Shown one piece after another: positions 4,612 through 55,102 of a DNA stretch of 55,102 bases (the first letter of the stretch is position 1; each line of letters begins with the position of its first letter). The translations under genes were made by a program, and so were the position numbers. Origin of the DNA: an uncultured bacterium (GTDB lineage Bacteria > Patescibacteriota > Minisyncoccia > Phycocordibacterales > UBA9973). The notes under the pieces were generated by a model, which did no database searches, was not told the DNA's origin, and saw only the letters and a program-made list of their open reading frames with translations. Location of the stretch: contig CALCZP010000003.1 of assembly GCA_937903035.1 (NCBI GenBank), forward strand, positions 131,156 to 186,257, given 5' to 3'.

Positions 4612-5007
4612 CTATGCAGCACAAGTAAGTTTATGCTTGATAGTATCAAAATACTGGTCAAGAAGTTTTTTTGATACAACAGCATAGTGAATGTTTCGGT
4701 GCTTACACTCTCTTGAGGCAGCAACTCTCAGTTCTTTAGGAATTTGATACAAAGTACTGTTGATGAGAATGATTGTATTGCAGTACTCAAAAGATGATGA
4801 AGAGCCAAAGCGAGGACTTGAAACTTTAAGGCAATTAAGGCTAAGGTTTGTCGCATGCCTTCCTGCGCACGTAATAATTTGGCAACCTAGAGGGTTCATT
4901 CCTAATGTACCATCTTTTGCTTCGTGGTATCTTAGGATTTCACTAACTGAGACAGTAGGAATAGTAATTCCTTTTAATTCATACAAGGCTAGTTTTTTTT
5001 GCTTCAT
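4612..5007 (-). CDS. hypothetical protein (131 aa) in the AT-rich spacer downstream of ssrA
   Basis: It is the only long ORF in this AT-rich gap and I recognised no family. Its stop is followed by the hairpin at 4572-4599. Confidence 0.4.
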   Translation of the reverse strand: MKQKKLALYELKGITIPTVSVSEILRYHEAKDGTLGMNPLGCQIITCAGRHATNLSLNCLKVSSPRFGSSSSFEYCNTIILINSTLYQIPKELRVAASRECKHRNIHYAVVSKKLLDQYFDTIKHKLTCAA

Positions 5008-5209
5008 ACTTTTTTGTATTTGTAATGAAAGATTGTTTTGTATGATTATCTCACTTTTAAAAAATAAGTCAATAGATATGACAAAGCCGCCTCAGAGGTG
5101 GCTTTGCTGTTTATTTTTTGTACACGTTTTTGTGGTATCCCGTTCAGCTCGCGCTTCACAGGATCCTACAAAAATATAGTCGCACTCGAGAGAGTGCTCG
5201 TTATTTTTG

Positions 5210-5601
5210 TGGAGATGGGGGGAATCGAACCCCCGTGTAGAAATGGTGAACAAGTAACTCTCCATGCGTAGTACAGTTTGATGTGTTAGGAGTGAATCTT
5301 AAAACGGTACAAAACAATTCATTCCCGAGCCGTTATGTGTTTGGTGTTGCTCTACGGCGAGAGTGACTGCCTATCCCACTGTCATTATGCCGCACTCACT
5401 CTAGTGGGAGTGAAGTGGTGCGACACCGGATCGGCCTAAAGTTAGGCGAATGCCGGAGCGAAGCCAAATGCGTTAGCAAATGGAGACTTCACTGAAGCGG
5501 TTCTGTTGCCAGGTGACCTGTGGACGACGTTTTGCGAGAGTACGTCCATGCTCGGCATGCATACAGGTTCGAGACCATGTCTGTCGAAACCTATCATCCC
5601 C
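5210..5601 (-). ncRNA. ssrA: tmRNA (transfer-messenger RNA)
   Basis: 5' GGGGATGATAGGTTTCGACAG pairs with 3' ...GGGGGTTCGATTCCCCCCATCTCC-A, giving a G3:U70 Ala identity pair. CCA is not encoded. An internal frame ...GCT AAC GCA TTT GGC TTC GCT CCG GCA TTC GCC TAA (5442-5477) encodes a tag ending ANAFGFAPAFA. The gene lies directly downstream of smpB. Confidence 0.85.
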
Positions 5602-5687: not shown

Positions 5688-6128
5688 CTAATCTGCGAGT
5701 GTTCTTTCTATATCGCGCTTAACTGCGCTATCTTTAAGTGTTGCTCGTTTGTCAAAGACCTTTTTACCTCGTGCGATTGCAATCTGCAGCTTCACGAGAC
5801 TTCCTTTACCGTACAATGATATTGGGACGATAGTCAAGCCTTTGGTTTCTGATGCTTTCTTGAAGTCGTACAATTCCTTTTTCTTGACCAGAAGTTTGCG
5901 TGCACGATAGGGGTCGTAGCTCGATGAGCTATTTTTCTCTTGCCATGCAGGAATGTGTGCGCCGAGTAGGTAGAGCTCGCCACCGAGGAGTTGCACATAG
6001 GCGCCGACCAGTGAGCCGTGATTGTGCTTCACGGATTTGACTTCGGTCCCGAGAAATTCAACACCAACCTCATAGCTGTCCTCGAGGTGGTAGTCAAATG
6101 TCGCCCTTTTGTTACGGAGGTATTCCAT
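5688..6128 (-). CDS. smpB: SsrA-binding protein SmpB
   Basis: RNKRATFDYHLEDSYEVGVEFLGTEVKSVK ... GLTIVPISLYGKGSLVKLQIAIARGKK. The start was trimmed to MEYLRNK (6128) from the longer tracked ORF. Confidence 0.9.
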   Translation of the reverse strand: MEYLRNKRATFDYHLEDSYEVGVEFLGTEVKSVKHNHGSLVGAYVQLLGGELYLLGAHIPAWQEKNSSSSYDPYRARKLLVKKKELYDFKKASETKGLTIVPISLYGKGSLVKLQIAIARGKKVFDKRATLKDSAVKRDIERTLAD

Positions 6129-6172
6129 ATATACAGCATGGTAGCATGAGTTAAGCTCGAGCGAATATTGTG

Positions 6173-6178
6173 TATAAT
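6173..6178 (+). promoter_or_regulatory. -10 box TATAAT 6 nt upstream of the ftsH ATG (leaderless-type start)
   Basis: TATAAT at 6173-6178, ATG at 6185, and no purine-rich SD in between. Confidence 0.45.
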
Positions 6179-6184
6179 GGACGG

Positions 6185-8086
6185 ATGTCAAAACAGCACC
6201 CATTGCCACCCCAGGAGTCCAAGAAAAAGCCGGCTCCAAAGCGCTCACTTTCATCGTATATTGTCTCAACACTCCTTATTTTTGGAGTTATCACCGTACT
6301 ATATTCATTTGTAAGTGGAAATACGAAACCAAAAGAGGATATAGTGACCCTTTCCGAAGTTGCACGACTCGTGCAAGCACAGCAGATCAAATCAATCGTC
6401 GTTGATGGTGAACAGCTCACAATCACCAAAGCAGATGACAGTCTGCTCAAGTCAAAAAAAGAGCCTGATGCATCGCTTGTTGAAACATTGGCTGCATATG
6501 GAGTTGAGCAGACAAAGATCGCAAGTGTTGATATCAGTGTTGCAAGTCAGAGTGGGCTCGCATTCTTTTTACTCTCGATTCTTCCAATAGTGTTACCAAT
6601 CCTTCTCGTCGTATTCTTTTTCTGGATGCTCACCCGTCAGGCAAAGGGGGCGGGTATGCAAGCTTTTAATTTTGGCCAGTCCAAAGCGCGCGTCACCGAT
6701 CCATCTGACAAGAACAATAAGGTCACCTTTAAGGATGTTGCCGGTGCACGTGAGGCAAAAGAAGAACTCAAAGAAATCGTCGACTTCCTCAAAAATCCGA
6801 AAAAGTTTCTTGAGATTGGGGCACGTATTCCAAAGGGAGTGCTTTTAACAGGGGCTCCTGGTACGGGCAAGACCTTGCTTGCTCGTGCGGTTGCAGGAGA
6901 AGCAGGTGTACCATTTTTTCATCTCTCCGGATCTGAATTTGTTGAAATGTTCGTTGGTGTTGGTGCATCACGGGTACGTGATCTCTTTAAAATGGCAAAG
7001 CGTGCGGCACCGTCAATCATCTTTATTGATGAGATTGATGCAGTAGGGCGCGTGCGTGGTGGTGGGTACGGCGGGGGAAATGATGAGCGTGAACAGACGC
7101 TCAACCAGATTCTTGTTGAAATGGATGGCTTTGAACCAAATGACAAAGTGATCGTGATGGCTGCCACCAACCGATCTGATGTGCTTGATCCGGCGCTTCT
7201 TCGTCCAGGTCGTTTTGATCGACGGGTGACACTTGATCTCCCTGATCGTCGTGACCGCGAAGATATTCTTACGGTGCATTCAACCAAAAAACCATTTGCT
7301 GAGGATGTAAACCTCAAAGTCCTTGCGGAGCGAACACCGGGATTCTCTGGCGCAGATTTGTTCTCACTTATGAACGAAGGCGCGATCCTTGCTGCTCGTG
7401 AAAATCGTAAAAAGATTTCACAATTTGATCTCGTGCGCAGTATTGAAAAGGTTATGATGGGTCCTGAGCGCAAGAGTCATCTCTTTACCAAGAAAGAAAA
7501 AGAAATTACTGCATACCATGAAGCAGGGCATGCACTTGTTGCCTCAGTGCTTCCCGATGCTGATCCGGTACATAAAATCTCTATCGTTGCGCGTGGTCGT
7601 GCGGGTGGCTATACGCTCAAGCTTCCACTTGAGGAGCGGAAGCTACAGACACGCAAAGAGTTTCTCGATGATATTGCAATGTCACTGGGTGGCTATGCTG
7701 CAGAGGAGATGATCTATGGCGATGTGACGACTGGTCCGTCAAATGATCTCCAGGTTGCGACCAATCTTGCTCGAGCAATGGTAACCCGTTGGGGGATGAG
7801 TGATATTATCGGACCGCTTGCACTTGAGAATGATGGTGGGCGTGCAATGTTTGGCCAAGGTGTTGAAGGAAAAGAATATTCTGAAAAGACAAGTGCGCTC
7901 ATTGATAGTGAGGTTGAGCGTGTTATGCGTGAAGGACTCGTCCGTGCAAAAGATGTGCTGACACAACACCGTAAGGTCCTTGATATTATCGCCAAGAAAC
8001 TCATCGATGTAGAGACATTAGAACAAGCTGACTACGAAGCGATTATTGCTGCACACGGTATTGTTCCAAAGAAAATAACTATCTAG
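6185..8086 (+). CDS. ftsH: ATP-dependent zinc metalloprotease FtsH
   Basis: Walker [19 protein letters not shown], Walker [13 protein letters not shown] region, HEAGHAL zinc motif, and N-terminal TM segments. Confidence 0.96.
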
Positions 8087-9685: not shown

Positions 9686-9759
9686 GGGAGTATAGCTCAG
9701 TTGGTTAGAGCATCGAGCTTATACCTCGACGGTCGATGGTTCGAATCCATCTACTCCCA
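9686..9759 (+). tRNA. tRNA-Ile, anticodon UAU
   Basis: Cloverleaf GGGAGTA/TACTCCC acceptor; anticodon stem TCGAG/CTCGA; loop CTTATAC with anticodon TAT at 9720-9722; T-arm GATGG-TTCGAAT-CCATC. CCA is not encoded. Confidence 0.85.
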
Positions 9760-9766
9760 CAACATA

Positions 9767-15214: not shown

Positions 15215-15411
15215 AAGGATCTCTTGTTTGAGTACAGAAATCGGGAATCATTTCTACCTGCACGCGTGCTTCTAGGATCGCCGCGGCTTGAGCACTTGTA
15301 ATCAGCGTACGGATATTATGAGCAGTTTCGCCTCAACGGCCCCTGTGCAAACTTATGTGTTTTCTTTACTCAGGCAACCCTCTACTATTATTTAAAAGTA
15401 GAGGGTTTTTT
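15215..15411 (+). ncRNA. candidate ~190-nt structured small RNA of unknown class (6S-like by size only)
   Basis: No credible ORF. The closing helix TTGTTTGAGTA (about 15229-15239) pairs with TACTCAGGCAA (about 15367-15377). It ends in a strong plus-strand intrinsic terminator. Upstream is TTGACA (15183-15188) then TATAGT (15203-15208), but with only a 14-nt spacer. Confidence 0.35.
15376..15411 (+). terminator. intrinsic terminator of the orphan transcript
   Basis: AACCCTCTAC-12 nt loop-GTAGAGGGTT followed by TTTTT. Confidence 0.7.
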
Positions 15412-15459
15412 GTATACAAAATTATGATATAGTGTCGCTGTTCTATAATAAGAGAAACT

Positions 15460-15544
15460 GGAGACGTGTCAGAGTGGTCTAATGTACCTCCTTGCTAAGG
15501 AGGCGGGTGTCACAGCCCCGAGAGTTCGAATCTCTCCGTCTCCG
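15460..15544 (+). tRNA. tRNA-Ser, anticodon GCU (class II, long variable arm)
   Basis: Acceptor GGAGACG/CGTCTCC; anticodon arm CCTCC-TTGCTAA-GGAGG; variable arm CGGGTGTCACAGCCCCG; G73 discriminator. Confidence 0.88.
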
Positions 15545-15610
15545 CAAAGTCGTGCCGACACGAGGTATATTGCTTTTAATAAAATACGGAAAGCAATATA
15601 ATAAAGTTAC

Positions 15611-16054
15611 ATGAGTAAAACACATAAAAATGTAATTGTAATTTTCACAGTGTTTCTGATTATAGGATTATTATCTTCTTATTTTTATTGGGGCAAGGAA
15701 ATAATTTCACTAAACTCAACTATTGAAAAATGTACACAAAAAACAAGTATGTTTTTTAAAAAAATGAATACCAAAATAGATCAACAACTCGACTATTCCT
15801 TTGCTGAAAATGATTCAACATTAAAAGCATTACTTGGTAATAAATATAATTATATATCCGAAAAAGATAATAACTGTTACGCCTTAGTAAAAAATTACAA
15901 TTCTATTATAAATGAGTACCGCTATTCTATTTTGAATGCTGATACCGAAGTATTGGAAGTAGTTTTACTTGATCATGATTTAAAAAGTTCATCTTCAAGA
16001 GGATATCAAGAAGAATTCGTATCTAAATATAATCAATTATTTTTGAAAGAGTAA
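15611..16054 (+). CDS. hypothetical membrane-anchored protein (147 aa), very AT-rich
   Basis: N-terminal TM segment VIVIFTVFLIIGLLSSYFYW. Composition is strikingly more AT-rich than the neighbours, and the gene lies just 3' of tRNA-Ser. Confidence 0.5.
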   Translation: MSKTHKNVIVIFTVFLIIGLLSSYFYWGKEIISLNSTIEKCTQKTSMFFKKMNTKIDQQLDYSFAENDSTLKALLGNKYNYISEKDNNCYALVKNYNSIINEYRYSILNADTEVLEVVLLDHDLKSSSSRGYQEEFVSKYNQLFLKE

Positions 16055-16156
16055 AAAGTCCTCACGAGAGGTATAGATTTAGTTTCTGAAAAAGTTTTAG
16101 AATAACCTTATAAGACTTGTTCATCAAAGGTCGGAACCTGAATCTTTCAGCCTAAT

Positions 16157-16187
16157 AAAAAACCACGATAGTATATCGTGGTTTTTT
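16157..16187. terminator. bidirectional intrinsic terminator
   Basis: AAAAAACCACGATA-GTA-TATCGTGGTTTTTT between convergent genes. Confidence 0.75.
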
Positions 16188-16199
16188 ATTACTCTATTT

Positions 16200-16583
16200 T
16201 TAGAGAGTAGGAGCTACAGCAACAGGATTGAGTTTATGGTATGCCTTGTATGAAAATGCGAGGAGTACCATACATACGACCGGTGCAAGAAGTACTGGAG
16301 TGACACCGTCGACAATGAGGAGACTGAGAAATGCAAAGATGAAATCAAATGCAAATCCAGCATAGATCCATTCTTTGCACACACCTTTGATCATTGGGAG
16401 GACAAGTCCAACTGCGCCAACGACTTTGAAGATCGTGAGGAGGGTACCAAAGTATTCAGGATAGCCGAGATGTCGAATACCTTCCTTTGCAAGCTCGCTC
16501 TGTGAGGTGAGTGCCGGCATGAGCCCTTCGAACAAGAAAATAATAATCGTGGTGACCCAAAAAGTGATTTTTGTTGATTTCAT
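16200..16583 (-). CDS. DoxX-like small membrane protein
   Basis: Start trimmed to MKSTKITFWV. There are four hydrophobic helices, and LGYPEYFGTLLTIFKVVGAVGL resembles DoxX-like proteins. Confidence 0.6.
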   Translation of the reverse strand: MKSTKITFWVTTIIIFLFEGLMPALTSQSELAKEGIRHLGYPEYFGTLLTIFKVVGAVGLVLPMIKGVCKEWIYAGFAFDFIFAFLSLLIVDGVTPVLLAPVVCMVLLAFSYKAYHKLNPVAVAPTL

Positions 16584-16627
16584 AGTAGGAGTGTAAATCG
16601 TGGTTAGTAAACATGCAATAAACACTA

Positions 16628-16636
16628 TGGTATTAT
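16628..16636 (+). promoter_or_regulatory. extended -10 box TGgTATTAT 6 nt upstream of ATG 16643
   Basis: TGGTATTAT at 16628-16636 and ATG at 16643. Confidence 0.45.
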
Positions 16637-16642
16637 TTCGTG

Positions 16643-17209
16643 ATGGAAAGTGTAGAGTTTCTCGTAAATGCAAAACCATTGATCACTGTTGTCCACGTGA
16701 TTAGTGTGGTGTTTGGGATGGGTGCTGCACTGATGTCGGATATTCTTTTTACATTCTATGGCAAAGATCGCAAACTCTCAGTGACCGAGGTGTCGACACT
16801 GCGCATCTTGAGTAATGTCGTCTGGATCAGTCTTGTAGTGATCACGCTCAGTGGTGCAGGATTGTTTTTTTCTAATGTGCCGAAATATCTCGCGTCCGTG
16901 AAGTTTCTAGTGAAGATGTCGATCATGATTGTGCTCTTGCTCAATGGCTTTGTTTTGCATCGCCATGTGTCGGAGCAGATGGCATTGCCGCATTTTCTCA
17001 CGAGCCCGCATTTCGCGGCGACCCGTCGTCTCGCATTTGCGTGCGGTGCGATATCAGTGATTTCTTGGATAGCACTTTGTACACTTGGCGTCCTTGATAG
17101 TGTTTCGGTTTCATATGGAGTACTCATGGCAAGCTACGGAGCAGTGATCCTCTGTGGAATCAGTGTTGCGCTCTTGGTTGAGCGAAAAACCTTTGCTGTC
17201 AAAAAATAG
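16643..17209 (+). CDS. hypothetical polytopic membrane protein
   Basis: Five to six hydrophobic segments. I recognised no family. Confidence 0.6.
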   Translation: MESVEFLVNAKPLITVVHVISVVFGMGAALMSDILFTFYGKDRKLSVTEVSTLRILSNVVWISLVVITLSGAGLFFSNVPKYLASVKFLVKMSIMIVLLLNGFVLHRHVSEQMALPHFLTSPHFAATRRLAFACGAISVISWIALCTLGVLDSVSVSYGVLMASYGAVILCGISVALLVERKTFAVKK

Positions 17210-17271
17210 AGATATTCTTGTATCAAGGGGCTAGAATTTTTTCTCATTTCGTACTAGAATCAGACCACCAC

Positions 17272-17359
17272 GGAGGCGTGGATGAGTGGTTTAAATCAAC
17301 GGTTTACTAAACCGTCGGCCTTAATCGGCCCGAGAGTTCGAATCTCTCCGCCTCCGCCA
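17272..17359 (+). tRNA. class II tRNA with Ser architecture and anticodon ACU (A34); CCA encoded
   Basis: Acceptor GGAGGCG/CGCCTCC; D-arm GAT-GAGTGGTTTAA-ATC; anticodon arm ACGGT-TTACTAA-ACCGT with anticodon at 17306-17308; long variable arm; T-arm GAGAG-TTCGAAT-CTCTC; G73 then CCA. Confidence 0.75.
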
Positions 17360-17362
17360 AAA

Positions 17363-18088
17363 ATGAAAACAAGTGTTCTCATAATTGCATATAACGAAGA
17401 AAAACATATCGGTGCATGTATTGAGTCAGTGCTGAGACAAACAATTCCGGCTGATGAGATCATTGTTGTCGCGCACAACTGTACTGATGCGACGGAGCGT
17501 ATTGCGCAATTATATCCGGTGAAGCTGGTGTCATTTCAAGGACCTGTCGGTATTATCTATGCACGCATCGAGTCACTCAAACAGGTGACAGGGGATGTGG
17601 TGCTCTGTACGGATGGTGATGCGGTGGTTGATCGCAACTGGATTGAAGTGATGACAAGAGTGCTCGTAGAAAACAAAAACATGCTTGTTGGATCGCGTGT
17701 TATGTTTGTCGGGACTTTTTATAATAGATTCTGTAATTTCCTTAATACAATTGTTGGATGGTTTCTGCCTTGCAGTGGTCCAAAAGTTACTCGTGTGATC
17801 TGGGGTCCGAGTATTGCATTTTGGGCAAAGAACAAATATGTTGTCTCAGATATATTTGCACAAAGTTATATATGGTCAAGAAATCTTGGACTCACACGGA
17901 ATCCTGATGACTACTGGCTTGCACTTGAAATGAGTAAACGTGGCAATATTGCCTATACAACTGACACGACTGTGCGCGCAGTCGCAAAAGAACTCACAAG
18001 TCTCGATGCATATAAACGTAATCGTGAAAACAACAAACATGGAAAAAAGATACGTGCGTATTTCAAGTCTAAATACTGTCACTCATAG
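17363..18088 (+). CDS. family 2 glycosyltransferase
   Basis: SVLIIAYNEEKHIGACIESVLRQT ... DEIIVVAHNCTDAT ... CTDGDAV (DxD-like). The start was trimmed because the upstream part of the tracked ORF is the tRNA. Confidence 0.85.
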   Translation: MKTSVLIIAYNEEKHIGACIESVLRQTIPADEIIVVAHNCTDATERIAQLYPVKLVSFQGPVGIIYARIESLKQVTGDVVLCTDGDAVVDRNWIEVMTRVLVENKNMLVGSRVMFVGTFYNRFCNFLNTIVGWFLPCSGPKVTRVIWGPSIAFWAKNKYVVSDIFAQSYIWSRNLGLTRNPDDYWLALEMSKRGNIAYTTDTTVRAVAKELTSLDAYKRNRENNKHGKKIRAYFKSKYCHS

Positions 18089-18090
18089 AT

Positions 18091-18126
18091 AAAAAAATCT
18101 CTTCAATTATTGAAGAGATTTTTTTA
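18091..18126. terminator. bidirectional intrinsic terminator
   Basis: AAAAAAATCTCTTCAA-TTAT-TGAAGAGATTTTTTT. Confidence 0.75.
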
Positions 18127-18303
18127 TTAGTTCTTTGATTCGATTTTTCGGAGCTCTTCTTCTGCTGCCTGAATCAAGAGGTCGATACCAAAATTTTCTT
18201 GCTCAATAAGGTCTTTTTCTGCAGTATCAAATTCGATAAGTGCCTCAGTTTGGTCACTGGTGAGTTCTGCTGGTTCGGGTTGTGGTTGGTCAAAATGATT
18301 CAT
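18127..18303 (-). CDS. small acidic protein (58 aa), third gene of the uncharacterised cassette
   Basis: Not in the ORF track (below 60 aa). I translated it by hand: MNHFDQPQPEPAELTSDQTEALIEFDTAEKDLIEQENFGIDLLIQAAEEELRKIESKN. It starts 11 nt after the upstream stop and ends at the terminator. Confidence 0.4.
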   Translation of the reverse strand: MNHFDQPQPEPAELTSDQTEALIEFDTAEKDLIEQENFGIDLLIQAAEEELRKIESKN

Positions 18304-18314
18304 AGGTATAGCTA

Positions 18315-19460
18315 TTATGCAGCCTGTGCGGCACCAACATCAAGGATGTTTTCTTTTCGCTGTACTAGGTTGCTGACTTTATTCTTAAATTTGTTCAGGA
18401 TATCACCAAGGTGTTTGCCACTGTTCACGAGCTTTTTGGTCAAATGCTCTGCACCGCCACCTGCAGCCATGAGTTCAATTGCATGGAGGACATCCTTGCC
18501 GATACCGAGTGCATGAAGTGATGGGCCGATGAGTACATGTGTGGTGTATTCAGTTGCGGTCGCAAGCATCGGGAACTTGTGTTCAAATTTCTCAAAGAGT
18601 GTTTGATGTTTTGTATGTGCTTCAGACAGTACTTCAGCACCTGTCTGTGCTTTGATATTGTGCTCCATCCCTTGCGCGAATGCTTGCTGGTCTTCTGGTG
18701 AGAGGTGAGCGACACGATCCATCACTTCCTTGAGCTTTGCAAGTTTTGCCTCATGTATTTCAAGTGCTTTTGCTTTCTCAGATTCTGCAGACGCGAGACG
18801 CTCAATCTGCTCGGGTGAGGCTTTTGCGAGGAGTTTCTCTCGCATGCTTTGAGGGAGGTTTGCCGCGACTTTCTCAAACCCTTTGAGTGCCCACATACCA
18901 CCAGCTTTTGATCCTGCAACTGATGTCGCAGCACCGAGGAATCCATGACCTGCGATGGTGCCACCTATACCACCTGCAATATTTCCGATTCGTCCAACCA
19001 TTTTTATCAGTTTTGGGTTGTAGTTGTGTTCATCAGTGAGTTTTTGTTCAAGTTTACTTTGTGCATGGACAAGGTGTGCAAACTTTTCTTTTATGGTGGC
19101 GATGATACTTTTTCCTTCGGGTGACTGTTCTATCTCAGTAGTAATAAATGCTTGTTCTTCTTGTGGTAGCTGTTGTATTTCGGCAAGCGTTGCTTCATGT
19201 GTCTCGGCAAGCGTGCTGCCAATCTCAATCGACTCTACTGTACGGTTAAATTCACTATTCTCAATGGCTGCACTATCCGCCAATGTTTCATTTGGTGGCA
19301 GTGATTCAGGGTTTACAAGTGAGTCTGCTATCTCAATACTTGTTCCTTCGGGAGATATAGCAATGTTCGTCTCATCGACTGTTTCAGGTGCAGCACGTTC
19401 CTCAGTTGGTATAACTACTTCTTCATCGCTATTGGGTCCTGTAGAAAATGTTTCATGCAT
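18315..19460 (-). CDS. hypothetical 381-aa protein: acidic disordered N-terminus, glycine-zipper segment, helical C-terminal half
   Basis: About 110 N-terminal residues are rich in E/T/S/P. It carries MVGRIGNIAGGIGGTIAGHGFLGAATSVAGSKAGG (GxxxG repeats) and a second Gly-rich patch, ELMAAGGGAEH. I recognised no family. Confidence 0.6.
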   Translation of the reverse strand: MHETFSTGPNSDEEVVIPTEERAAPETVDETNIAISPEGTSIEIADSLVNPESLPPNETLADSAAIENSEFNRTVESIEIGSTLAETHEATLAEIQQLPQEEQAFITTEIEQSPEGKSIIATIKEKFAHLVHAQSKLEQKLTDEHNYNPKLIKMVGRIGNIAGGIGGTIAGHGFLGAATSVAGSKAGGMWALKGFEKVAANLPQSMREKLLAKASPEQIERLASAESEKAKALEIHEAKLAKLKEVMDRVAHLSPEDQQAFAQGMEHNIKAQTGAEVLSEAHTKHQTLFEKFEHKFPMLATATEYTTHVLIGPSLHALGIGKDVLHAIELMAAGGGAEHLTKKLVNSGKHLGDILNKFKNKVSNLVQRKENILDVGAAQAA

Positions 19461-48301: not shown

Positions 48302-48874
48302 ATGACTGCAACAATTGCCGAGCCTCTTATCATAGAGTCGCTTGAAGAATTACAGTACATTCAATCAGAGCCATTTACTCAACTTAGATTTATTTCGGGT
48401 ACGTCATTAAATCATACATTTGGTGCCATTTGTATTGTGTATGATATCGATATTGACGCAGTGCTGGTCATTCCTTATTTTTTGAAAAAATCACATGAGC
48501 AATTAGAGAAAATTGAAATTTCTGAAAATCCTGAAAGTCTTGCATTGCGATTGATAGTAAAAGAAGCTGAAATGAAATCAAGCAGGGTAAACGTCCTTGG
48601 TTCACCTATTGGTGTTCCAGACAAAAGATCACTAGATCAGACATTTTTCAAATATATCGTTTTAATAACGAACTTCGAACCAGAAGATCGAATTGAAATC
48701 GAAGTAAATTCGACCAAAACAGGAAAACCTGTTTGGGTAAAACGAGAATTACTCAGGTATATTTTTGAAGAGAAGCCACTGATCAATGATTTTCCAAGAA
48801 AACATCCGCACCTTGAAGCCTATCAGCGATTTATGGAAGATTTCCCTCTGAGAAGTGAGTTAGAGCAATGGTGA
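48302..48874 (+). CDS. hypothetical protein (190 aa), AT-rich
   Basis: ORF with its own terminator. I recognised no family, and the resemblance to a Nudix-like fold is only vague. Confidence 0.45.
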   Translation: MTATIAEPLIIESLEELQYIQSEPFTQLRFISGTSLNHTFGAICIVYDIDIDAVLVIPYFLKKSHEQLEKIEISENPESLALRLIVKEAEMKSSRVNVLGSPIGVPDKRSLDQTFFKYIVLITNFEPEDRIEIEVNSTKTGKPVWVKRELLRYIFEEKPLINDFPRKHPHLEAYQRFMEDFPLRSELEQW

Positions 48875-48945: not shown

Positions 48946-49197
48946 ATGGTAGTACGAATGAGACACACACGAGCACACACGGCTAACCGTCGCTCACATC
49001 ATGCACTTAAGGATGCAGCAATCAGTACTGACACCAAAACTGGTGCAGTACACCTCCGTCACCGCGCAAGCAAGGATGGTATGTACAAAGGACGTTCAGT
49101 CATGGGTGATCCAGTCAAGAAAGTTATGAAAAAGCAGGCAAAGCCAGCCGCGAAGAAAGTAGCAAAGAAGGCTCCAAGCAAAAAAGCTAAAAAATAA
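48946..49197 (+). CDS. rpmF: 50S ribosomal protein L32 with a Lys/Ala-rich C-terminal extension
   Basis: HTANRRSHHALK ... TGAVHLRHRASKDGMYKGRSV aligns with the bL32 core (RRSHDAL ... HLRHH..DG.YRGR). It is followed by KKVMKKQAKPAAKKVAKKAPSKKAKK. Confidence 0.85.
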   Translation: MVVRMRHTRAHTANRRSHHALKDAAISTDTKTGAVHLRHRASKDGMYKGRSVMGDPVKKVMKKQAKPAAKKVAKKAPSKKAKK

Positions 49198-49205
49198 TCA
49201 CTATT

Positions 49206-50105
49206 ATGGCAAATCGGCACCTTTCTAGGTCCATCGTTCTTCAATCACTGTTCGAATGGGATTTCACGGGATACCCGGATGGTATGCGTGTGACCGTTGA
49301 CCGAAACATTGCCGAATTTGCTCCTGGTCACAACGATACCGCATTTATCTATGGTCTTGCTGAGCTCGTCGAGCGCAAGCGCACGATCATTGACGATATT
49401 ATCACCAAGGCTGCGCCTGAATGGCCACTCGACAAGATCTCAAACGTTGATCGTAACGTTCTTCGCATGGGACTTGCGGAACTTCTCTTTGGTGATCGTG
49501 AACAAGTACCTCCAAAAGTTGCAATTAACGAATCTATTGAACTCGCCAAGACGTTTGGCGGAGAAAACAGTGGTAAATTTGTCAACGGTGTGCTCGGCGC
49601 TGTCTACAAAGAAATTGGTGAGCCTGGCAAAGACCAGACGACCAAGCAAAAAGGTCCAAAGCCGGTAGTTGAAGAAGATCTTTCCAAGATTCCTATCGAA
49701 CAAAAAGCGGGTGCTATTATTTATGCAAAACATGATGGTGTTGTATATCTTGCACTCGTCCATGATGTGTTTGGCTATTGGACCCTTTCAAAAGGAGGTG
49801 TAGAAGCTAATGAGAGTATTGAGGACGGTGCAGTGCGTGAGATTAAAGAAGAGCTTGGTATTGATATTACTATCGAAGACAAGCTTGGAGATATCGAATA
49901 CATGGCATTTCATCCAGTCGAAGGCAAGATTCGCAAGCAGGTTGCATTCTTCCTCGCAAAGGCTGACTATCAGGAACTCAAGCTTCAAAGCAGTGGTGGT
50001 CTCGATAAGGCCGCATGGTTTCAATTGCATGAAGTGGTTGACTTGACCGTCTACGATGATATATTGCCGCTGATCGCAAAGGCGATCGAACTTATCAATA
50101 AGTAA
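49206..50105 (+). CDS. nusB: NusB antitermination factor fused to a C-terminal Nudix hydrolase domain
   Basis: Residues ~1-135 are NusB (RSIVLQSLFEWDF, DRNVLRMGLAELLF, INESIELAKTFGGENSGKFVNGVLGAV). The C-terminal ~135 aa carry a perfect Nudix box, GGVEANESIEDGAVREIKEELGI. Confidence 0.85.
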   Translation: MANRHLSRSIVLQSLFEWDFTGYPDGMRVTVDRNIAEFAPGHNDTAFIYGLAELVERKRTIIDDIITKAAPEWPLDKISNVDRNVLRMGLAELLFGDREQVPPKVAINESIELAKTFGGENSGKFVNGVLGAVYKEIGEPGKDQTTKQKGPKPVVEEDLSKIPIEQKAGAIIYAKHDGVVYLALVHDVFGYWTLSKGGVEANESIEDGAVREIKEELGIDITIEDKLGDIEYMAFHPVEGKIRKQVAFFLAKADYQELKLQSSGGLDKAAWFQLHEVVDLTVYDDILPLIAKAIELINK

Positions 50106-50154
50106 CAACAATGACTATTGGCGCATGGGGATCACAATCCGCATACGCGAGTAG

Positions 50155-50160
50155 TACAAT
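50155..50160 (+). promoter_or_regulatory. -10 box TACAAT 6 nt upstream of the rnc ATG
   Basis: TACAAT at 50155-50160 and ATG at 50167. Confidence 0.45.
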
Positions 50161-50166
50161 CCATAT

Positions 50167-50856
50167 ATGAAAGATTTTACCCCCTTTGAACGCTCACTCA
50201 GTATTTCATTCACTGACAAAGCAATCCTTGCTCGTGCATTTACTCACCGTTCGTATATCAATGAAAATCCTCGTTCAGGACTCGAACATAATGAACGGTA
50301 TGAATTTCTTGGTGATGCGGTGATTGAGCTCATTATTACTGACTATTTGTTTCGTCAGTATCCAACTCATGCTGAGGGTGATCTCACTGCATACCGAAGT
50401 GCACTTGTAAACGCAATCATCATGGGCGAGGCGGCAAGTGAACTCGGGATGAATGACTACCTCCTCCTTTCAAAAGGTGAGCAAAAAGACACTGGTCGTG
50501 CACGGCAAACAATCCTTGCCAATGCATATGAAGCATTTGTTGGTGCGCTCTATCTTGATCAGGGCTATGATGTTTGTGTGACATTTGTGACCAATAGTCT
50601 TATTCCTCGACTTCCTGAGATCATCAAAAAGAAGCTTTGGAAAGACGCAAAAAGTTTGGTCCAAGAAGAAGCACAAGAACGACTCAATCTTACACCGTCA
50701 TACAAAGTGGTCGCAGAGACAGGTCCAGATCATGATAAGTGGTTCACGATCGGTATTTACTTTGGTGATAAAAAAATAGCTGAAGGTAAGGGACGTTCCA
50801 AGCAAGAAGGTGAGCAGAGTGCAGCACGTGCTGCACTCGAAGCAAAAGGGTGGTAG
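50167..50856 (+). CDS. rnc: ribonuclease III
   Basis: Signature NERYEFLGDAVIEL, catalytic EAFVGALYLD, and a C-terminal dsRBD. Confidence 0.95.
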   Translation: MKDFTPFERSLSISFTDKAILARAFTHRSYINENPRSGLEHNERYEFLGDAVIELIITDYLFRQYPTHAEGDLTAYRSALVNAIIMGEAASELGMNDYLLLSKGEQKDTGRARQTILANAYEAFVGALYLDQGYDVCVTFVTNSLIPRLPEIIKKKLWKDAKSLVQEEAQERLNLTPSYKVVAETGPDHDKWFTIGIYFGDKKIAEGKGRSKQEGEQSAARAALEAKGW

Positions 50857-50873: not shown

Positions 50874-50880
50874 TTTGATC

Positions 50881-53139
50881 ATGCGCCTCAAGCATATCGA
50901 GCTGGTTGGCTTTAAATCGTTTGCGAAAAAAGCAACGCTTTCTTTCAATACTCCAGTGACCGCAGTAGTGGGTCCTAATGGTTCTGGTAAATCAAATGTT
51001 GTTGAAGCATTTCGTTTTGTACTTGGTGAGCAGTCAATGAAAAGTATGCGTGGAAAAGTGGGTGCTGACCTAATCTTTCGCGGTGCTGGTGCCAAAATGA
51101 ACCGTGCTGCAGTCTCAATCACCTTTGATAATAGTGACAAGGTTTTTGGGTTTCAAACGGGCGAAGGCAAGTCGCCACTCCTCTTTGATACAGTAACATT
51201 TACTCGTGAGCTCTTTGCTGACGGGACGAGCAAGTACTCGATGAATGGAAGCGAGATTAAGCTCAAGGCAATGACTGAGCTTCTCTCATCAGTTAATATC
51301 GGTACCTCGAGTCATCATATTATCTCGCAGGGTGAGGCTGATGGAATACTACGTGCCAATCCTCGAGAGCGTCGTGAAATGCTTGAGGATGCGCTTGGGC
51401 TCAAGATCTACCATTTTCGCATCAAGGAAAGTGAATCTAAGCTCGCCAAAGCAACAAATACACTTAAGGAAGTACAATCACTTCGTCGCGAGCTTGCACC
51501 GCATCTCAAGTTTCTGCAGAAGCAGGTTGAGAAGATTGAAAAGGGTCGTGCGATTCGTACTGAGCTTGAGGATGCACTGTTGAGATTTCTCGCGACTGAG
51601 CGTGCGCAGCTTGGGCAGGAAGATATGCGACTTCGTGATGCAATGCAGCTTATCAAAGATCGCAAGCAGGCTATTGAGTCCAAACTCGCCGCCCTTCCAG
51701 ATGAAGTTTCTGTGCAAGATGATGAAAGTATTACGGTGCTTTCTAAGTTTCGCACCGAGCTCTCCCATGTCCGTGATGAACGTCGCAGTATTGAGCAGAA
51801 GGTGAGTCGTCTCGAAGGGATGCTTGAAGCGCATCGGCATATTGCTCGTGTGCCGCACAAGCCGATCACTCATCCATCTATCATATTTGCACCGAGCGAG
51901 TACCATCAGATTATTTCTGATATCGAATTTTTCATAACCGCAGTACGCAGTGCAGAGTCGCTCGATGATGCACGTCATGCGATGGCTCGTATCGAACCAA
52001 TCCTTTCCAAGCTCAAATCGCGCGAACCAAAGAGTGAGCCGGTTGAGTCGCACCCCCAGCCCGATCATCAGCTCCTCAAAGATACCGCGCTTGAGCTCGA
52101 AGGACTCGCAGTGTCACTTACATCTCTTATCAAAAGAGAGGATCATATCCAACAGCAAATCAATGCTACAGAGTCAGCTCGCGAAGCATCACTTGTCGAT
52201 GCGCGTATTGCGACCCGTGCACGGTATGAATTGCAGAATGAGCTGACGCACTGTGACGCAGAGCAACAGATACTCATGGTCTCACAGAGTGGCTTTGTTG
52301 CTCGCAAGGAGCAGTTTGATGCTGACCTCAAGGAAGCAGGATTCATGTTTGGTCCGACTTTTTTGCACAAGCTGAAAGAAAGCGTTGTAGTGCCTGAGAT
52401 TGATCTCCATACATTGAAACGCGATATTGATCGTCTCAAGATCAGACTTGATGAGCATTCAGGTATCGGCAACGATGTGCTTGGTGAATATGACACAGCA
52501 CGAGAGCGCGATGAATTCTTGGCACGTGAACTTAGTGATACTGAAGGAAGTATTAGAAATCTTGAATCGCTCATTATTGAGCTCAAGAAAGTTCTTGATG
52601 AGCAGTTTACGGGCGGTGTCAAAATCATCAATGAGCGCTTTAGTGAATTCTTCAAGTCGATGTTCGGTGGCGGCAATGCATTCCTCTCGATCACCCTTGA
52701 AAAGAAGCGTAAACGAAAGATGTCAGAAGAGGAGCTGATGGAAGATATGGAACAGTCTGGTGAGGATGATGATCAACTCTTTGAGCGGGGTATTGATGTG
52801 CATGTAAGTCTACCTGAAAAGAAGGTGAAGGAGATTCACATGTTCTCAGGTGGTGAGCGATCACTCGTCTCCATTGCGCTTCTCTTTGCGATTTCACAGG
52901 TGAACCCACCACCATTTCTTGTACTTGATGAGACTGACGCAGCACTCGACGAAGCAAATAGTCGTAAGTATGGCGATATGATCGAACGCCTTGCTGAATA
53001 CTCACAGCTCATCGTGGTGACACACAATCGTGAGACCATGTCTCGCGCATCAGTTCTTTATGGTGTGACCCTTGGTGCTGATGCGGGATCTAAACTCCTC
53101 TCAATCAAATTTGATGATGCAGTGAAAGTTGCGAAATAA
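50881..53139 (+). CDS. smc: SMC chromosome-condensation ATPase, unusually short (752 aa) with no recognisable hinge
   Basis: N-head IELVGFKSFAKK...VVGPNGSGKSNVVEAFRFVLGEQS. C-head signature FSGGERSLVSIALLFA and Walker B FLVLDETDAALD. rnc-smc synteny as in Firmicutes. Confidence 0.88.
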   Translation: MRLKHIELVGFKSFAKKATLSFNTPVTAVVGPNGSGKSNVVEAFRFVLGEQSMKSMRGKVGADLIFRGAGAKMNRAAVSITFDNSDKVFGFQTGEGKSPLLFDTVTFTRELFADGTSKYSMNGSEIKLKAMTELLSSVNIGTSSHHIISQGEADGILRANPRERREMLEDALGLKIYHFRIKESESKLAKATNTLKEVQSLRRELAPHLKFLQKQVEKIEKGRAIRTELEDALLRFLATERAQLGQEDMRLRDAMQLIKDRKQAIESKLAALPDEVSVQDDESITVLSKFRTELSHVRDERRSIEQKVSRLEGMLEAHRHIARVPHKPITHPSIIFAPSEYHQIISDIEFFITAVRSAESLDDARHAMARIEPILSKLKSREPKSEPVESHPQPDHQLLKDTALELEGLAVSLTSLIKREDHIQQQINATESAREASLVDARIATRARYELQNELTHCDAEQQILMVSQSGFVARKEQFDADLKEAGFMFGPTFLHKLKESVVVPEIDLHTLKRDIDRLKIRLDEHSGIGNDVLGEYDTARERDEFLARELSDTEGSIRNLESLIIELKKVLDEQFTGGVKIINERFSEFFKSMFGGGNAFLSITLEKKRKRKMSEEELMEDMEQSGEDDDQLFERGIDVHVSLPEKKVKEIHMFSGGERSLVSIALLFAISQVNPPPFLVLDETDAALDEANSRKYGDMIERLAEYSQLIVVTHNRETMSRASVLYGVTLGADAGSKLLSIKFDDAVKVAK

Positions 53140-53164: not shown

Positions 53165-53485
53165 ATGGCAACGATCTACAATAAACTCATTCGCGATAAA
53201 GTTCTTGATATACTCGACAAAAAAGGCATTGCACACAAGTCGCATATTGCAGATGATCAAGAGTTTGAGGAAAAGCTATTTCTTAAACTACTTGAAGAAG
53301 CAGCTGAAGTTGCTACTGAAGAGGATAGTGAAAAGCTCAAAGAAGAACTCGCTGATTTACTAGAAGTGATTGAGGCCATCAAGTCTCACAAAGGTTTTAC
53401 TACAGCAGAAATTGAAGAAACCCGTCTTGCAAAAATTGCTGAGCGCGGTAGTTTTGACAAACGGATTATTCTTGAGGAGTCCTAG
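53165..53485 (+). CDS. MazG-like / phosphoribosyl-ATP pyrophosphohydrolase-like small NTP pyrophosphatase
   Basis: YNKLIRDKVLDIL N-terminus and EExxE acidic helices (LLEEAAEV, ELADLLEVIEAI); 106 aa. Confidence 0.65.
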   Translation: MATIYNKLIRDKVLDILDKKGIAHKSHIADDQEFEEKLFLKLLEEAAEVATEEDSEKLKEELADLLEVIEAIKSHKGFTTAEIEETRLAKIAERGSFDKRIILEES

Positions 53486-54367: not shown

Positions 54368-54395
54368 TTGACTTTCAAACCTTGCCGTATATAAT
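54368..54395 (+). promoter_or_regulatory. candidate rRNA operon promoter
   Basis: TTGACT (54368-54373), a 16-nt spacer, then TATAAT (54390-54395), about 155 nt upstream of the 16S 5' end. Confidence 0.55.
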
Positions 54396-54548
54396 AGGGG
54401 TCGCTCACAAGTTCGAGCAAGTTGTTTGAAAATTGTATAGTACGTAATGCAAAACAATCCAAAATAACCTGTTTATTTTATTTGAGAGGCAAAATGAAAG
54501 TCATCTTTCTTTTGCCTCGGTCTAAGACATACTTATTTATAAGTGTCT

Positions 54549-55102
<554 letters not shown>

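Follow-up and report, generated by a model that had tools for sequence, protein, structure and literature searches.

A Patescibacterial NusB Orthologue Carrying a C-Terminal Nudix Domain Whose Catalytic Box Is Often Lost

The fused gene, its authenticity and its spread

The 55,102-nucleotide (nt) window analysed here (positions 131,156 to 186,257 of contig CALCZP010000003.1, assembly GCA_937903035.1, from an uncultured bacterium of the patescibacterial class Minisyncoccia) carries, between rpmF and rnc, an open reading frame (ORF) in which NusB is fused to a Nudix domain. NusB is a universal and much-studied component of ribosomal RNA (rRNA) synthesis and is normally a bare protein of ~140 residues. 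The fused gene, referred to below as nusB-nudix, starts with ATG, ends with TAA and encodes a product of 299 amino acids (aa), referred to as the query; its coordinates and those of the surrounding features are collected in Table 1. A first-pass annotation made from the sequence alone had described an N-terminal NusB, a Lys/Pro-rich linker and a C-terminal Nudix domain with a perfect Nudix box, and this anatomy proved right in every detail when compared with Pfam, the NCBIfam model TIGR01951, the translation and an AlphaFold model. Both halves scored above the Pfam cut-offs: PF01029 (NusB) matched residues 7-135 (E 1.7e-29, 103.3 bits against a cut-off of 23.1) and PF00293 (NUDIX) matched residues 168-282 (E 5.7e-15, 55.9 bits against 21.1). 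The Nudix box, GGVEANESIEDGAVREIKEELGI (residues 197-219), agrees with the signature GX5EX7REUXEEXGU at all defined positions. The AlphaFold model, built with 30 homologues, contains two confident domains (mean predicted local distance difference test score, pLDDT, of 82), with seven helices in residues 4-137 and an alpha/beta domain from residue 164, and residues 140-157 form a disordered linker with pLDDT below 50. The linker sequence, PGKDQTTKQKGPKPVVEEDLSK, is rich in Lys and Pro; across the fusion family the linker is 8 to 37 residues long and poorly conserved except for a GEPGK motif where NusB ends. The Nudix half is acidic, with a net charge of about -9 in the query and a family median of -5. 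The GC content is 0.43 in this half, 0.48 in the NusB half and 0.44 in the window as a whole, values that do not mark the Nudix half as a recent acquisition.

The NusB half exceeded the cut-off of the NCBIfam equivalog for nusB, TIGR01951 (110.8 bits against 88.35), and matched NusB sequences of the PDB with E values down to 1e-19; in Foldseek searches, its target-normalised template modelling (TM) scores were 0.85 to 1tzv and 0.87 to 3r2d_B. No second NusB, and no other Nudix protein of the same family, was found in the window. A scan of GTDB with one genome per species retrieved 590 NusB relatives, the best 80 of which were examined. The gene order rpmF, nusB, rnc, smc is present in nearly all of these 80 loci (50 fused, about 29 unfused), and the gene calls agree. 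Since this order is common to fused and unfused lineages, the fused gene is orthologous to ordinary nusB, and we conclude that it is the nusB orthologue of this organism.

The first-pass annotation had also raised the concern that an indel error or a false join of contigs near the junction had made one ORF out of separate nusB and Nudix genes. The identical 299-aa product was called on contigs of ENA ERZ650304, ENA ERZ650271, Logan SRR6231147 and Logan SRR6231148; at least four independent assemblies, which come from two studies, thus have the same ORF. Contigs of four runs from two studies span positions 49000-50300, and with them the junction, without a single difference or gap, a check that rests on assembled contigs and not on raw reads. 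Wastewater or sludge sites are among the places where the organism occurs. There is no in-frame Met in the translation between the linker and residue 233 at which a separate Nudix protein could start, which makes separate translation of the Nudix half unlikely. The same single ORF recurs in at least 120 homologue clusters and in 50 GTDB genomes. With the independent assemblies, the homologue clusters and the GTDB genomes in agreement, a frameshift or an assembly join is refuted, and an artefactual origin of the fusion is practically out of the question.

The homologue clusters, at least 120 in number, are 69-100% identical to the query and 297-310 residues long, and both Pfam domains are present in every one listed. 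Their source names are Candidatus Paceibacterota, Minisyncoccia, Pacebacteria and Patescibacteria. The sole product name that they carry is "transcription antitermination factor NusB" or "N utilization substance protein B"; in practical terms, the present annotation "NusB" conceals a second domain. The fusion, which was said to lose its point if it proved both common and functionally annotated, is thus indeed common, and its functional annotation is limited to the name NusB.

A search with the Nudix half alone against 50%-identity cluster representatives retrieved 193 clusters at E <= 1e-10, the best 150 of which were examined. Among these 150 were 32 full-length NusB-Nudix proteins, whose Nudix halves are 25-58% identical to the query and, in most representatives, less conserved than the NusB halves (34-67%), as well as 31 apparently complete stand-alone Nudix proteins of ~140-150 residues. 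The survey of the best 80 GTDB species loci revealed NusB and Nudix in one ORF in 50 and a stand-alone NusB in about 29. Fused loci carry labels that include Kaiserbacteria, Nomurabacteria, Zambryskibacteria, Ryanbacteria, Niyogibacteria, Komeilibacteria and "Paceibacterota", and labels of loci with a stand-alone NusB include Azambacteria, Yanofskybacteria, Moranbacteria, Nealsonbacteria and Wildermuthbacteria. On a rough neighbour-joining tree of NusB halves, the fused and unfused states change about four times. We conclude that the NusB-Nudix fusion is real and widespread, and that both of its halves are under purifying selection.

Type of the Nudix domain and state of its catalytic box

The best PDB sequence matches to the Nudix half were the diadenosine tetraphosphate (Ap4A) hydrolase of Aquifex aeolicus (aq_158, 3i7u, E 8.5e-9) and Ndx1 of Thermus thermophilus, a diadenosine hexaphosphate (Ap6A) hydrolase (1vc8, E 2.3e-8), followed by the C. 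elegans Ap4A hydrolase (1kt9, E 5.5e-6) and then by Dcp2, MutT1 and others. Foldseek yielded target-normalised TM scores of 0.87 to 3i7u and 0.86 to 1vc8. Diadenosine polyphosphate (ApnA) hydrolases took ranks 1-3, 7 and 9 among the 50 fold matches listed, and mycobacterial MutT1/Rv2985, the NrtR Nudix domain, and C. elegans, human and Chlamydia Ap4A hydrolases were among the further matches. The NrtR Nudix domain (3gz8) stood at ranks 5-6 with a target-normalised TM score of 0.72, the match covering the Nudix fold only, and NudC first appeared at rank 44 of the 50. No RppH structure was named among these 50 best matches. For the Nudix half, no NCBIfam equivalog reached its cut-off, and the RppH profiles were far below theirs (16-23 bits against 116-241; the best, NF001936, 23.4 against 118). 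Tyr232 is conserved and aligned with a Tyr of the Aquifex enzyme 3i7u; a Tyr at a similar spacing after the box marks Ap4A hydrolases, in which it stacks on adenine.

Judged by sequence and predicted fold, the Nudix half is of the Ap4A/Ap6A-hydrolase type and is not an RppH orthologue, so that the RppH-like enzyme proposed in the first-pass annotation gives way to Ap4A/Ap6A hydrolases as the closest relatives. A domain of this type may still be compatible with action on RNA ends: RNA polymerase can initiate transcripts with Np4A compounds, and RppH and ApaH take off the caps that this leaves (PMC7044304, PMC8833179). Dcp2 was matched at fold ranks 33-49 over more than 255 aligned columns, with a root-mean-square deviation above 10 Å. 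It also begins with a helical domain and has its Nudix domain after that; this architectural resemblance is probably not homology of the N-terminal domains.

To describe the state of the catalytic box, five residues were scored: E203, R211, E212, E215 and E216 (query numbering). All five are canonical in 28 of the 31 stand-alone relatives; at least one of the three with unusual boxes may be a fusion fragment. Among fused proteins, the complete set is found in 6 of 32 divergent fusions, 23 of 50 GTDB fusions and 48 of 119 close relatives (at least 69% identity). In about half or more of the orthologues, between one and four of these five residues have thus been lost, the Glu of "RE" more often than any other. 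Eight of the 32 divergent fusions retain this Glu, the others having V, K, I, A or T in its place, and eight different residues (E, K, A, V, S, I, G and T) are seen at position 212 in the GTDB fusions, 13 species of which have lost position 212 alone while others have lost two to four box residues. The 119 close relatives include 70 with Lys at position 216 and five with Ser at position 212. Residue 216 aligns with Glu50 of Ndx1, which was mutated to Gln in the Mg-ATP complex 1vc9, presumably because the mutant is inactive. On the rough NusB-half tree, intact and broken boxes change about 14 times among 49 fusions.

The rest of the domain has not decayed in step with the box. Across the 27 GTDB fusions whose box is non-canonical, D187, G190, W192, T193, K196, Y232, G265 and W271 are each 100% conserved, Y283 and F189 are 96% conserved and H186 is 93% conserved; the conservation of non-catalytic positions in this subset equals or exceeds that in the subset with an intact box. 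Six residues (F189, P237, G240, G265, F272 and L280) are conserved in fusions and far rarer in stand-alone relatives. Because the catalytic box is not conserved across the fusions, hydrolysis is unlikely to explain the fusion for the family as a whole, and the perfect box of the query, on which the first-pass annotation had based its proposal of 5′-end chemistry, does not represent the family. The pattern of substitutions suggests that the conserved job of the domain is probably not hydrolysis.

Genomic neighbourhood and the 16S rRNA leader

Table 1. Coordinates of nusB-nudix, its parts and the neighbouring features in the window.
Feature	Coordinates	Strand	Evidence or remark
nusB-nudix gene, 299 aa plus stop	49206..50105	+	ORF list, sequence, both Pfam domains
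NusB domain, residues 1-138	49206..49619	+	PF01029, TIGR01951, PDB NusB matches, Foldseek
Flexible Lys/Pro-rich linker, residues 139-160	49620..49685	+	pLDDT, variable length
Nudix-fold domain, predicted Ap4A/Ap6A-hydrolase type, residues 161-299	49686..50102	+	PF00293, PDB sequence matches, Foldseek
Nudix box GGVEANESIEDGAVREIKEELGI, residues 197-219, intact	49794..49862	+	Read from the translation
rpmF (ribosomal protein L32), 83 aa	48946..49197	+	8 nt upstream of nusB; Pfam, TIGR01031
rnc (RNase III)	50167..50856	+	61 nt downstream of nusB; Pfam Ribonucleas_3_3, dsrm
smc, short (754 aa)	50875..53139	+	Pfam domains on called gene; synteny
Promoter-like site of 16S gene, TTGACT-16-TATAAT, 11/12 consensus matches	54368..54395	+	Consensus scan; predicted
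boxA-like element GTTGTTTGAAAA, 16S leader	54421..54432	+	Sole relaxed-pattern match in window; presumed NusB/S10 site
16S rRNA gene, 5′ part (cut by window end)	54549..55102	+	Rfam RF00177, 428 bits

The position of nusB-nudix between rpmF and rnc is as first described, and rpmF and nusB-nudix are probably in one operon. Most of the related loci that extend far enough upstream have rpmF at the same position, and in nearly all related loci, fused and unfused alike, rnc comes after nusB. The rpmF-nusB-rnc-smc neighbourhood is therefore ancestral and older than the fusion. Since the order is identical where NusB has no Nudix domain, the neighbourhood is uninformative on the function of the Nudix half, and its RNA-processing character, which had been taken as a clue to that function, loses its value as such.

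Stand-alone relatives of the Nudix half are found in unrelated contexts, one of them beside histidine biosynthesis genes. Another, P0154, which is one of the closer stand-alone relatives and has an intact box, is encoded at positions 6001-6453 of locus L089, in a phage- or mobile-element-like island with an integrase, a DNA methylase and a Rep_O-like gene. Nudix genes near the fusion in loci L086 and L087 were considered as paralogues of the fused domain and rejected, their similarity being that of a generic box (E 2.5e-5 over 39 residues) or none.

Several other features of the window were recorded. Between thrS and rpmF lies a 190-aa ORF (48302-48874, +) that belongs to no Pfam or NCBIfam family, and ORFs of similar size occupy the same position in relatives (196 aa in L087, 179 aa in L088 and 213 aa in L086). 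It was rejected as a degenerate Nudix domain: an hhalign comparison with the fusion family gave a probability of 0.2% and an E value of 0.3, covered the box region only and was not significant. L32 has a Lys-rich C-terminal tail, KKVMKKQAKPAAKKVAKKAPSKKAKK, past the Pfam domain. The SMC protein has only 754 aa, and the same short form (752-761 aa) occurs in relatives; bacterial SMC proteins are typically much longer. In the interval between smc and the 16S rRNA gene, a 106-aa ORF (53165-53485, +) bears a resemblance to the MazG nucleotide pyrophosphohydrolase domain at 21.7 bits, just under the Pfam cut-off of 22, and would be a second fold of the nucleotide-pyrophosphatase type close to the rRNA gene. 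A tmRNA gene is located at 5207-5601 on the minus strand (Rfam RF00023, 101 bits), and ARAGORN predicted tRNA-Ile with anticodon TAT and tRNA-Ser with anticodon ACT (9686-9760 and 17272-17359), both anticodons being unusual in bacteria.

The 16S rRNA gene at the end of the window is complete in a longer copy of the contig (L001, positions 15344-18985). In that copy an OMP-decarboxylase gene and a tRNA, not 23S, come after 16S, and the rRNA genes are therefore unlinked. The promoter-like site of the 16S gene, which is preceded by the terminator of the upstream gene, and the boxA-like element lie ~4.3 kb downstream of nusB-nudix, with the element ~20-30 nt after the predicted transcription start. 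The relaxed pattern GTTSTTTGAAAA by which it was found is expected 0.04 times in the window by chance, and GTTGTTTGAAAA is its unique match. The E. coli-type boxA pattern GYTCTTTRA matches the window just once, at a site distant from the 16S gene, and was not retained. An identical element is present behind a similar promoter in the 16S leader of L087, whose fusion protein is 73% identical to the query, and a third fusion-bearing species, L088, has the variant GTGCCTTGAAAA in the same promoter arrangement. In the 16S leaders of two lineages with a stand-alone NusB (L067 and L079), no such element was found within two substitutions; two leaders are too few for a comparison of fused and unfused lineages. 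We call the element in the window boxA-like and no more than that, and presume it to be a NusB/S10 site. If it is, the tethered domain could reach the 5′ end of the transcript, because the element is located so close to the predicted start; such reach may keep an action on the 5′ end alive in species with an intact box.

Interpretation and comparison with known systems

The explanation that we tentatively favour is that the orthologous nusB of Patescibacteria of the Paceibacteria/Minisyncoccia class gained a C-terminal Nudix fold of the Ap4A/Ap6A type, which would serve as an accessory module on a tether, conserved for binding and not for hydrolysis. The NusB half would have its usual role, pairing with S10 and binding the boxA-like element of the 16S leader. 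From the conservation patterns we infer binding by the Nudix half, whose ligand may be an adenine or purine polyphosphate (an Ap4A-like compound, a nucleoside triphosphate (NTP), or an RNA 5′ end or cap). Such binding would make NusB responsive to the ligand, in the way of the Nudix-like effector domain of NrtR. Alternatively, the Nudix half may bind a protein partner in the antitermination complex and act as a scaffold, for which SuhB is a precedent. With its intact box, the query domain may also hydrolyse its ligand in this genome.

A tethered binding module is favoured because the pattern is NrtR-like, with a fusion to a nucleic-acid-binding factor, a signature that is often perturbed and a conserved remainder, and because of the SuhB precedent. 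In NrtR, a Nudix domain is fused to a nucleic-acid-binding domain, has lost the signature in many members and is now effector-binding; NrtR proteins with a perturbed signature, when tested, had no appreciable hydrolase activity, and members with an intact signature may still hydrolyse the ligand (PMC2330246). The growth defects associated with SuhB are independent of its inositol monophosphatase activity (PMC4807359), and SuhB is integral to the rRNA antitermination complex (PMC6614797, PMC6614801). A more specific version, which we consider rather improbable, makes NusB-Nudix a ligand-gated antitermination factor: the Nudix domain would sense (and, with an intact box, also degrade) an adenine polyphosphate such as Ap4A or the NTP pool, thereby altering via the tether the engagement of boxA or polymerase by NusB/S10.

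Several observations weigh against a tethered binding module. Altered Nudix boxes are not always inactive, and some of the "broken" orthologues could be enzymes of another kind; the query itself has a perfect box, so that a purely catalytic role may apply here. The predicted TM score (pTM) of the AlphaFold model is 0.51, leaving the domain-domain arrangement without confidence and providing no structural clue to an effect of the Nudix domain on NusB. The tree from which changes of state were counted is based on ~135 residues, is noisy and serves as a rough guide. The stand-alone NusB of L057 (Candidatus Azambacteria, 4998-5444) is 65% identical to the query NusB half and has no Nudix domain, and the module is therefore dispensable in some near relatives; this protein groups with the query on the same tree, and secondary loss of the Nudix domain in at least this one near lineage is suggested. 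Finally, the boxA-like element departs at positions 4 and 8 from GYTCTTTAANA, the consensus of gamma-proteobacteria, with a G replacing an important C of E. coli, in which position 4 matters (PMC5725501).

The same evidence can be set against other explanations. The Nudix half may be a mere passenger, a housekeeping Ap4A/NTP pyrophosphohydrolase fused through loss of a stop codon in a compact genome, in which case the two halves would be independent and the fusion would only ensure their co-expression. The flexible linker of variable sequence and length, the lack of a confident domain arrangement, the unrelated contexts of the stand-alone relatives and the close NusB without Nudix in L057 would all agree with this. 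However, the fusion persisted while the Nudix half diverged to 25% identity, and a housekeeping enzyme would be expected to keep its box, as the stand-alone relatives do and the fused copies do not. Since there are, in addition, conserved residues specific to the fusion, we regard the passenger explanation as fairly unlikely.

The first-pass annotation had proposed that 5′-end chemistry is coupled to rRNA antitermination and processing. Put in full, an active RppH-like RNA 5′ pyrophosphohydrolase or decapping Nudix enzyme would be delivered by NusB/S10-boxA to the nascent rRNA leader, where it would convert a 5′-triphosphate or nucleoside tetraphosphate (Np4) cap to a monophosphate, in coupling with antitermination and RNase III processing. 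The link to rRNA transcription in this proposal is reasonable, given the NusB orthologue, the promoter-like site of the leader and the boxA-like element, from which a domain on a ~20-residue linker could reach the transcript start; the query box is intact, hydrolysis of the Ap4A type is the same chemistry as that of Np4 caps, which are installed by RNA polymerase and removed by RppH or ApaH (PMC7044304, PMC8833179), and Dcp2 decapping enzymes are among the sequence and fold matches. The RppH-like part is undercut by the profile scores and by the fold matches, and the loss of catalytic residues in so many orthologues means that the proposal fits the query and not the family. Moreover, the acidic domain disfavours binding of an RNA backbone, the rnc neighbourhood is older than the fusion, and processing removes the rRNA leader anyway. 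We therefore consider 5′-end processing by the fusion protein quite unlikely.

Public databases already show the architecture, a common one within a single class of Patescibacteria, and the sequence itself is not new. No paper with NusB and Nudix together in its title or abstract was found in the literature, nor any linking NusB with Patescibacteria, and erosion of the catalytic box under selection appears to be unreported so far. A large branch of Patescibacteria has kept a Nudix domain on NusB over deep divergence while repeatedly shedding its catalytic residues. Retention of the domain with loss of these residues suggests that it has some accessory role in rRNA antitermination that has so far gone unrecognised, such as ligand sensing, 5′-end capture or scaffolding. 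If the Nudix half is a tethered binding module, it would join NrtR as the second example in which a Nudix hydrolase has turned into a regulatory module of a transcription factor. If the ligand-gated version is true, rRNA synthesis in these tiny bacteria would have a direct input of nucleotide status, and NusB-Nudix would be the first transcription elongation factor known with its own small-molecule sensor domain. The hosts are hard to culture and have minimal regulatory repertoires; the hypothesis is open to tests with recombinant proteins.

Compared with known systems, the query shares with classical NusB (TIGR01951, PF01029; T. maritima 1tzv and the Aquifex NusB-NusE-RNA complexes 3r2c/3r2d) the equivalog match, the fold and the rpmF-rnc position that stand-alone nusB has in sister lineages, and differs from this stand-alone protein of ~140 aa in having ~160 extra C-terminal residues, the linker and the Nudix domain. 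A precedent for a NusB-like N-terminal domain joined covalently to an enzyme domain acting on rRNA is the 16S rRNA m5C methyltransferase RsmB/Sun, NCBIfam models of which match query residues 29-140; in RsmB, however, a NusB paralogue is joined to a methyltransferase, whereas in the query a true NusB orthologue is joined to a Nudix domain. ApnA Nudix hydrolases (3i7u, 1vc8, the C. elegans and human Ap4A hydrolases and mycobacterial MutT1) match residues 161-299 best in both sequence and structure, and the query has an intact box as they do. They stand alone or, in the case of MutT1, carry a different domain, whereas the query domain is joined to NusB, and, unlike in these hydrolases, the catalytic Glu and Arg residues are replaced in many NusB-Nudix orthologues. 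RppH, which removes Np4 caps and 5′ pyrophosphate (PMC8833179), has only the Nudix superfamily in common with the query, as judged by its profiles and by the 50 fold matches listed.

The likeness to NrtR is a functional parallel: in both, a Nudix domain is joined to a nucleic-acid-binding transcription factor, and some members have an intact signature, many a perturbed one. NrtR consists of an N-terminal Nudix domain resembling ADP-ribose pyrophosphatase and a C-terminal winged-helix DNA-binding domain, whereas the query has a C-terminal Nudix domain resembling Ap4A hydrolases on an RNA-binding antitermination factor and, according to Pfam, no winged helix, and is thus not a member of NrtR. 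E. coli SuhB is likewise an enzyme fold within the NusB/NusE/NusA/NusG complex in which catalysis is not what matters; it differs in being a separate polypeptide with the inositol monophosphatase fold, which has no sequence or fold relation to Nudix.

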